From a virus (Duplodnaviria; Heunggongvirae; Uroviricota; Caudoviricetes): a stretch of DNA of 22,551 nucleotides. The stretch's first letter is position 1; each line of letters begins with the position of its first letter. The stretch lies in IMG/VR virus record IMGVR_UViG_2534681934_000013, one strand, 5' to 3'. Both the position numbers and the translations under genes were made by a program. Shown here in pieces: positions 20,033 through 20,320 of the stretch. The notes under the pieces are model-generated. The model worked only from the letters and a program-made list of their open reading frames with translations. It searched no databases and was not told the origin of the DNA.

Positions 20033-20320
20033 AAAAAGCCAGCGACTGACCTGAAAGAAGACGCTGGCTAAAAGGCCTTATATGTTTGTAGAGACTTATT
20101 TTTCACAGACAGCAATGATGCCTGTCAATATATTATCAATATGCGGATTGTTTCAGTTACAGATGCTTTATTAAGGAAAAAAACAGCCAGCACTGACTTT
20201 CGGTGGAGAGGTGCTGGCTCAAAAGGATAGATGTACTTCACATGTTGCTTCTATATGGCAGTACATTTTCTGACAGACAGTGACGGATGTTGTCAAGATA
20301 TTGTGTCATTTATAACCTGA
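20033..20320. repeat. two tandem imperfect copies of a ~140-bp unit, each with a long stem-loop
   Basis: Unit 1: aaaagccagcg...cgctggctaaaagg ... ttttcacagacagcaatgatgcctgtcaatatatt. Unit 2: aaacagccagca...tgctggctcaaaagg ... ttttctgacagacagtgacggatgttgtcaagatatt. Confidence 0.4.

Follow-up and report, generated by a model that had tools for sequence, protein, structure and literature searches.

A diverged tandem repeat between the esterase and lysis genes of a lambdoid prophage very probably comprises two minus-strand small RNA genes, PasA and a paralogue

What is the twice-repeated, hairpin-bearing sequence that separates an esterase gene from the lysis genes in this prophage, and does either copy act as a gene? 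The window, that is, the whole stretch of 22,551 nucleotides analyzed, corresponds to late-region DNA from a lambdoid prophage of the O157:H7/Stx1-phage type, with 99.4-99.6% identity to O157:H7 chromosomes over its entire length. A non-coding stretch between the esterase and the lysis genes, estimated at 450 bp in an earlier sequence-only reading, was present at that place and measured 444 bp (Table 1). Comparison with the equivalent regions of Stx phages, proposed in the same reading, identified phage YYZ-2008 and many Stx1a-converting phages as the nearest records of the gap (99.6% identity), together with phage 434 (98.9%).

The gap harbors two units arranged head-to-tail, unit 1 (U1, positions 20031-20176) and unit 2 (U2, positions 20177-20320). 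Both stem-loops were found as previously described, namely gccagcg (20038-20044) facing cgctggc (20062-20068) across a loop of 17 nt, and gccagca (20186-20192) facing tgctggc (20212-20218) across a loop of 19 nt; their stems, given as 7 bp, reach 8-9 bp when flanking A/T and inner pairs are counted (AGCCAGCG/CGCTGGCT and AGCCAGCAC/GTGCTGGCT, respectively). The A-runs beside the hairpins (20032-20037 and 20177-20183, with shorter ones 3' of each hairpin) and the block ttttc-acagacag...gatg-tgtcaa-atatt, present at approximately 20099-20134 and 20266-20302, were likewise recovered. A tandem repeat of ~140 bp had been claimed; the two units are there, whereas the period is not uniform, the hairpins lying 148-150 bp and the blocks 168 bp apart (167-169 bp across related loci), because the stretch from block to hairpin is approximately 20 nt longer in unit 2. 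Similarity between the units is above chance: the local alignment scores 35, whereas 1000 dinucleotide-preserving shuffles gave 16.5 ± 2.4 and never reached 35 (highest score 27), and there are 97 identities in a gapped alignment of 176 columns (~55%). The duplication is real and, to judge from sequence, old. Tandem Repeats Finder called no array in the window, even at a minimum score of 30, since the copies are too diverged, and a satellite or tandem-repeat array was rejected, there being two copies only, ~55% identical and uncalled by this program.

The strand escaped the sequence-only reading: the small RNA genes lie on the minus strand. When this strand is read, terminator U-tracts take the place of the plus-strand A-runs, and the conserved block is seen as a promoter-like element that includes a perfect TTGACA, so that each unit consists of a promoter-like block, a short body, UUUU, a GC-rich hairpin and a U-tract. 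Such a 3' arrangement of UUUU, hairpin and U-tract is the usual Hfq-binding module. The RNAs of both units fold with a 3' hairpin and a U-tail (-18.8 kcal/mol for PasA, the RNA of unit 2, and -16.3 kcal/mol, z = -3.55, for that of unit 1), a terminator-like site was called at the unit 1 hairpin on the minus strand, and the U-tract that follows it directly adjoins the esterase stop codon. Curators of the phage 434 record (OL657226) had independently annotated both hairpins as minus-strand terminators. Read on the plus strand, neither hairpin is followed by a U-tract, and a role as terminators of plus-strand (late or esterase) transcription was rejected on this ground; a separate plus-strand terminator element occupies positions 20393-20429. 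Terminators of a minus-strand protein gene were rejected as well, the flanking esterase, holin and lysozyme genes all being encoded on the plus strand.

The block reads, on the minus strand, AATATnTTGACA with a perfect -35 hexamer, followed by a spacer containing CTGTCTGT and by an A-rich -10-like element, and that of unit 2 is situated directly upstream of the reported 5' end of PasA (20261). TTGACA was intact in every variant seen. The -10-like elements appear poor (CAGAAA/GAAAAT and GAAAAA/AAAAAT, with spacers of 18-20 nt), and a consensus promoter scan did not call either conserved block. The blocks are predicted to be the promoters of the two units, and the conserved CTGTCTGT spacer is a possible operator candidate; inspection of this spacer by eye revealed no LexA box (CTGT-N8-ACAG).

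Table 1. Coordinates of the features discussed in the text (positions in the 22,551-nt window).
Feature	Position	Strand	Remarks
SASA-family (NanS-p-like) carbohydrate esterase, 616 aa	18180-20030	+	Pfam SASA, DUF1737, DUF6645
Non-coding gap	20031-20474		444 bp, between SASA esterase CDS and P21-type holin
Putative unit 1 RNA, PasA/PasC paralogue, ~64 nt	20031-20094	-	Matches EcOnc52 peak; 3' part of the 236-nt minor PasA form
Unit 1 terminator hairpin	20037-20069	-	AGCCAGCG...CGCUGGCU; fold z = -3.55; U-tract 20031-20036 follows
Unit 1 promoter-like block	20098-20128	-	-35 TTGACA 20123-20128, CTGTCTGT spacer, -10-like GAAAAAT 20098-20104
Unit 1-specific sequence			CUCUACAAACAUAUAAGGCC
Spacer, PasA U-tract to unit 1 promoter-like block	20129-20176	-	Weak promoter-like match CTGAAA-18-TATATT, 20156->20127
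PasA sRNA gene, 85-nt major form	20261..20177	-	85/85 identity to NC_011601.1 743499..743415
PasA terminator hairpin	20185-20219	-	AGCCAGCAC...GUGCUGGCU; from fold; U-tract 20177-20183 follows
Unit 2 promoter-like block	20265-20296	-	-35 TTGACA 20291-20296, CTGTCTGT spacer, -10-like CAGAAAAT 20265-20272
Structured plus-strand segment	20331-20429	+	-45.7 kcal/mol, z = -2.7; intrinsic terminator 20393-20419 and T-run before the holin ribosome-binding site
Class II (P21-type) holin S	20475-20681	+	Pfam PF04971, E = 7e-33

By sequence identity, unit 2 is to be regarded as the gene of the small RNA PasA. This RNA was defined on the minus strand of prophage PP2 of EPEC E2348/69 as a major form of 85 nt (743499-743415) and a minor form of 236 nt reaching down to 743264 (Pearl Mizrahi et al., PMC8550237, table S6), and it was northern-validated, stabilized in an Hfq-dependent manner, expressed under virulence-activating conditions and represented by 41 RIL-seq interactions in that strain (PMC8550237). 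The published northern probe GCCAGCACTGACTTTCGGTGGAGAG matches window positions 20186-20210 exactly; the 85-nt form has its 3' end at the U-tract of unit 2, and the 236-nt form at that of unit 1. The location is also that of PasA, between the SASA esterase and the holin/lysozyme genes of a lambdoid prophage and antisense to both. Esterase-PasA-holin synteny has been described with phage NC_011356 (YYZ-2008) as the example (Zhu, Shabalina and Storz, 2026 preprint), the same phage that is the best match of the window (99.6%). The seed proposed for PasA, GCCAGCACCU, located in the 5' arm and loop of the terminator (PMC8550237, fig. S5), is found at window positions 20209..20218 on the minus strand, where it overlaps the terminator stem. 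Targets share a CUGAUGCUGG-like motif complementary to GCCAGCACCU, and the 3' end of the neighboring esterase mRNA is among the RIL-seq partners (PMC8550237); in the window, the esterase 3' end carries the reported partner motif CUGAUGCUGGA at approximately 20000-20010. Duplex folding of PasA and unit 1 RNA against the whole window was uninformative, giving long spurious duplexes throughout, the holin leader and the esterase ends being unremarkable. A second PasA copy was searched for in the window and none was found, leaving one PasA copy and one unit 1. The PP2 gap of E2348/69 is nearly identical to that of the window throughout and therefore also carries unit 1. Public annotation gives little indication of all this: none of the RefSeq matches listed has an sRNA feature over the gap, one showing only the holin CDS, Rfam 15 contains no PasA family, and the Rfam search suggested earlier returned no family for the gap at gathering score or at E ≤ 10 other than chance snoRNA-type hits (E = 2-9.5). 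With the gap unannotated in RefSeq and Rfam, and marked by terminators only in phage 434, a reader of the sequence alone thus sees an unexplained repeat.

Unit 1, in turn, is best described as a diverged paralogue within the PasA/PasC family. A covariance model (R1) built from 17 PasA, PasA-2, PasC and UA-stem sequences, with U1 excluded, was searched without filters against the whole 22.5-kb window; it scored 108.6 bits on PasA and 30.4 bits on unit 1 (20029-20108, minus strand; E = 2e-4 under a rough calibration), the latter match being mostly terminator-driven, and besides these two it gave no match below E = 0.2 in the window. The PasA seed is not conserved in unit 1, which has GCCAGCGUCUUC in place of GCCAGCACCUCU and whose arm and loop (GCCAGCGUCUUCUUUC) are unlike those of PasA, so that different partners would be expected if unit 1 is functional. 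Two Hfq-CRAC peaks of EHEC Sakai, EcOnc51 and EcOnc52, each with a predicted Rho-independent terminator, were catalogued as peaks only, their entries listing no northern blot (Tree et al., 2014, PMC4104026, Table S2), and were later grouped together as 'PasA homologues' (Pearl Mizrahi et al., PMC8550237). EcOnc51 (Sakai Sp12) lies over the 3' portion of a unit 2 of the PasA-2 type, and EcOnc52 (Sakai Sp4; UCUCUACAAACAUAUAAGGCCUUUUAGCCAGCGUCUUCUUUCAGGUCAGUCGCUGGCUCUUUUUUU...) over unit 1; from the unit 1 of the window it differs only by the length and composition of the U-tract. By sequence, the two peaks are different units, U2 in Sp12 and U1 in Sp4, rather than two copies of one gene. EcOnc52 is a crosslinking peak with edges good to approximately ±20 nt, and its sequence is identical in Sp4 and Sp12; because it is common to several Sakai prophages, its reads may be multi-mapping or could come from PasA read-through.

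Distribution and conservation were analyzed in three collections. Among 5,426 complete E. coli genomes, U1-like sequences occur at 2,304 places in 676 genomes (100 of these places on plasmids), and U2-like sequences at 2,855 places in 691. Among GTDB species representatives the pair was found only in Escherichia albertii, and there is therefore no deep divergence usable for covariation. From IMG/VR contigs, 168 gaps were gathered by anchoring on the esterase 3' end alone, with the units left unconstrained; a first pattern, ACAGACAG N8-12 TGTCAA, had proved too loose, returning mostly chance matches, and was replaced by 23-base and esterase-anchored patterns. Of the 168 loci, approximately 67 carry the tandem pair and 26 one unit of the PasC type; in another 10 the only unit has a GCCAGUA/UACUGGC stem, and 65 show an unrelated short gap. 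The last, ~170 bp long, lacks both units; it contains a terminator on the plus strand (GCCATCAGTA...TGGTGGCTTTTTTT) and runs into a different holin start (ATGTACCAGATGGAAAA). When 44 distinct tandem loci were compared, the promoter-like blocks varied least, with the minimum nucleotide diversity of the gap at the U1 block (pi 0.008) and a low value at the U2 block (0.032), and the 5' body of PasA varied most (0.157). In a hand-picked alignment of 18 distinct hairpins (PasA, PasC and U1 variants), from which two copies with a broken U1 stem were left out, 95.7% of stem cells were paired, versus 21-49% with a slid partner, and three of the nine stem pairs showed compensatory changes (C-G/U-A and A-U/G-C), among them a change from A-U to G-C at pair 8 and one from C-G to either U-A or U-G at pair 7. 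Ahead of the hairpin, unit 1 retains a U-rich tract, as do PasA and PasC. The U1 copy on ~90-kb plasmids is 93% identical to that of the window, with a 100% conserved promoter block and a U-G wobble in the stem, and its homology stops exactly at the U2 U-tract. The plasmid fragment consists of the esterase 3' end and unit 1 alone, lies on E. coli plasmids of ~82-95 kb (e.g., NZ_CP027444.1, 2914-3152), and adjoins IS600 and the quorum-quenching lactonase gene uilS.

Taken as a whole, the repeat very probably represents tandem paralogous minus-strand sRNA genes, each made up of a promoter-like block, a body and a terminator, unit 2 being PasA and unit 1 a paralogue of ~64 nt. Identity, paralogy, the terminator with its compensatory changes, conservation and distribution were computed here, PasA expression, Hfq dependence and partners are taken from the literature, and promoter function of the blocks, separate transcription of unit 1 and the regulatory roles of the two RNAs are inferred. 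In a lysogen, the minus strand would give rise to PasA, with the conserved TTGACA block as the probable promoter, and the RNA would end at its own terminator, Hfq presumably binding and stabilizing it via the UUUU-hairpin-U-tail module; it would then pair with mRNAs through its C/U-rich arm and loop. Some transcripts would read on to the U1 terminator, giving the published 236-nt minor form, and U1 would probably yield its own ~64-nt RNA, whose different arm and loop would imply different partners. Since both genes run antisense to the Q-dependent late transcript, this transcript is fully complementary to both RNAs, though any consequence of this complementarity is speculation.

For unit 1 itself, we lean towards independent transcription from its own promoter, as predicted from sequence. 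The fuller proposal, put forward tentatively, is that unit 1 is an independently transcribed and functionally distinct third member of the PasA/PasC group, forming with PasA an ancient pair of the OmrA/OmrB or PrrF1/PrrF2 type, of which the single-unit alleles would be deletion or recombination products; if so, prophage induction, through the perfectly complementary late transcript, would titrate or destroy both RNAs. A serious, if rather doubtful, competitor holds that only unit 2 is a gene, and that unit 1 is a decaying duplicate devoid of promoter activity, retained as a back-up terminator that halts PasA read-through before it runs antisense into the esterase. The 236-nt PasA species indeed traverses U1 and stops at its U-tract beside the esterase stop codon, an Hfq peak at a read-through terminator would resemble EcOnc52, the -10-like element of unit 1 is weak, and the single-unit alleles (PasC and UA-stem) manage without unit 1. 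On the other side, the promoter block of unit 1 is the most conserved part of the gap and stays intact in the diverged plasmid copy, which argues against a mere terminator, since a terminator alone needs no such block. Unit 1 also persists where PasA is missing, at ~100 plasmid places and in Sakai Sp4, in which IS629 replaces everything upstream of the U1 promoter block and U2 is absent, and it keeps the U-rich tract before the hairpin as PasA and PasC do.

A common origin of PasA and the RNA of unit 1, by processing of a single long minus-strand transcript that begins to the right of 20300, with the block as a processing/RNase signal or a protein-binding element, is considered unlikely. Northern data do suggest that the PasA 5' end is a cleavage product of a longer transcript (Zhu, Shabalina and Storz, 2026 preprint), which, if so, would disqualify the conserved block as promoter of PasA, and the poor -10-like elements fit such an origin. 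However, the scan found no minus-strand promoter-like site between 20300 and 20700, the TTGACA is perfect in every variant, the offset between the unit 2 block and the reported 5' end of PasA equals that between the unit 1 block and the 5' edge of the EcOnc52 peak, and the published longer species has its extra length on the 3' side of PasA rather than on the 5' side. That the units are no genes at all, only plain terminators, a protein-binding site pair or a recombination hotspot, is highly improbable despite the terminator-only annotation in phage 434 and the clustering of IS elements and deletion junctions in the gap, given that there is no minus-strand gene upstream for such terminators to end and that the identical sequence is a northern-validated, Hfq-dependent sRNA with 41 RIL-seq interactions, which contradicts this reading. 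Of the three roles offered earlier, then, that of a small RNA stands through the identity with PasA, recombination survives as a by-product only, and a binding-site pair as the primary role has nothing in its support beyond the candidate operator in the CTGTCTGT spacer.

The single-unit alleles bear on how the locus has changed. PasC (E2348/69 PP5) shares the promoter block and a unit-2-like body with PasA, while in its stem (GCCAGCG/CGCUGGC) and in the way it joins the esterase stop codon it resembles unit 1; PasC loci have one unit, whereas the window has two. The PasC loop is also present in some U1 copies of tandem loci (unit 47), and in the UA-stem allele (units 10 and 12) a PasA-like terminator directly adjoins the esterase stop. 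These PasC and UA-stem junctions are consistent with unequal recombination or deletion between the repeated terminators, as seen from sequence; passage from tandem to single and from single to tandem would both fit them. Insertions were observed at different points of the gap: IS629 at the equivalent of ~20150 (Sp4), a 'mobile element' at ~20213 (phage 2B8) and ISEc13 after ~20429 (PP5), and in one IMG/VR locus an insertion truncates PasA inside the hairpin. The gap thus seems to be a tolerated IS landing site.

According to the 2026 preprint, tandem duplication is not the way in which pasA copies arise, and Pas genes are treated there as single per prophage; its BLAST search used a word size of 28 and a query-coverage filter of >75% (Zhu, Shabalina and Storz, 2026 preprint). 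Unit 1 falls below these settings and would have been missed; contrary to that statement, the PasA locus is, to judge from its sequence, an ancient tandem duplicate. The 'minimum distance between pasA copies' in Fig. S7 of the preprint is 22,551 bp, the same as the length of the window, which is taken as a coincidence or cutting artefact.

Several other elements were observed around the gap. The structured plus-strand segment upstream of the holin gene, whose terminator is also annotated in phage 434, could be an esterase-moron terminator shielding the lysis genes from unmodified transcription, or might form the 3' terminus of an sRNA encoded on the plus strand; in the EPEC RIL-seq tables, a plus-strand RNA named 'pasA.E2348C_0689.IGR' appears in chimeras with PasB. 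Just upstream of the esterase gene there is a match to Rfam STnc100 (17871-18043, plus strand, 104.7 bits), an RNA related to PasD (Zhu, Shabalina and Storz, 2026 preprint). With PasA on the other side, the esterase moron is thereby flanked by sRNA genes facing each other, and 'convergent sRNA pairs' have been described (Tree et al., PMC4104026). The Sakai peak EcOnc04 (~222 nt by northern) lies 20-77 nt upstream of an esterase start in Sp11. Farther upstream, a match to the Rfam sok antitoxin RNA (12382-12556, plus strand, 113.5 bits) implies a hok/sok-type toxin-antitoxin locus, and two tRNA genes (16849-16921 and 17025-17098, plus strand) followed by a TerB-family ORF (17199-17702, plus strand) occupy the interval from the presumed Q/PR' region to the esterase. 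In this interval no stx genes were noticed, although the nearest phages of the gap are Stx1a-converting. The lysis cassette contains two extra plus-strand ORFs, one of 92 aa (20751-21029) that follows the holin and precedes the lysozyme-domain ORF (21250-21612), the other of 189 aa (21883-22452) and located after that ORF.

PasA has been known since 2021 (and again from 2026) and EcOnc51/52 since 2014, and what is added here is modest: the tandem paralogy, the assignment of EcOnc51 and EcOnc52 to separate units, and the recombinant look of PasC. Naming PasA nonetheless ties ~13% of complete E. coli genomes, mostly EHEC/EPEC with several copies each, to an Hfq-dependent sRNA with virulence-gene partners, and the tandem pair refines the evolutionary account of the 2026 preprint, leaving unchanged the kind of thing that the locus is.

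Among known systems, the closest is the PasA locus of E2348/69 PP2, which has the same gene, neighbors, antisense orientation, terminator and proposed seed as unit 2; no substantive difference was found, except that the window belongs to an O157:H7-like/Stx1-phage-like prophage and not to PP2. AgvB and AsxR (RF02702 and RF02703) are likewise short Hfq-bound sRNAs encoded at the lambdoid moron site, antisense to the PR' transcript, and have conserved 3' and variable 5' ends, a pattern also described for other prophage sRNAs and displayed by PasA; in sequence and structure, however, they do not match the PasA units (no Rfam hit at E ≤ 10) and constitute different families. Pairs of neighboring sRNA paralogues that point the same way, each gene having promoter-like and terminator elements of its own, are represented by OmrA/OmrB of E. 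coli and by PrrF1/PrrF2 of Pseudomonas, and read-through from PrrF1 into PrrF2 generates the longer species PrrH. Compared with these pairs, the two units of the window have diverged much further, are carried by a prophage and lie antisense to its late operon, and independent transcription of the second of them is putative.
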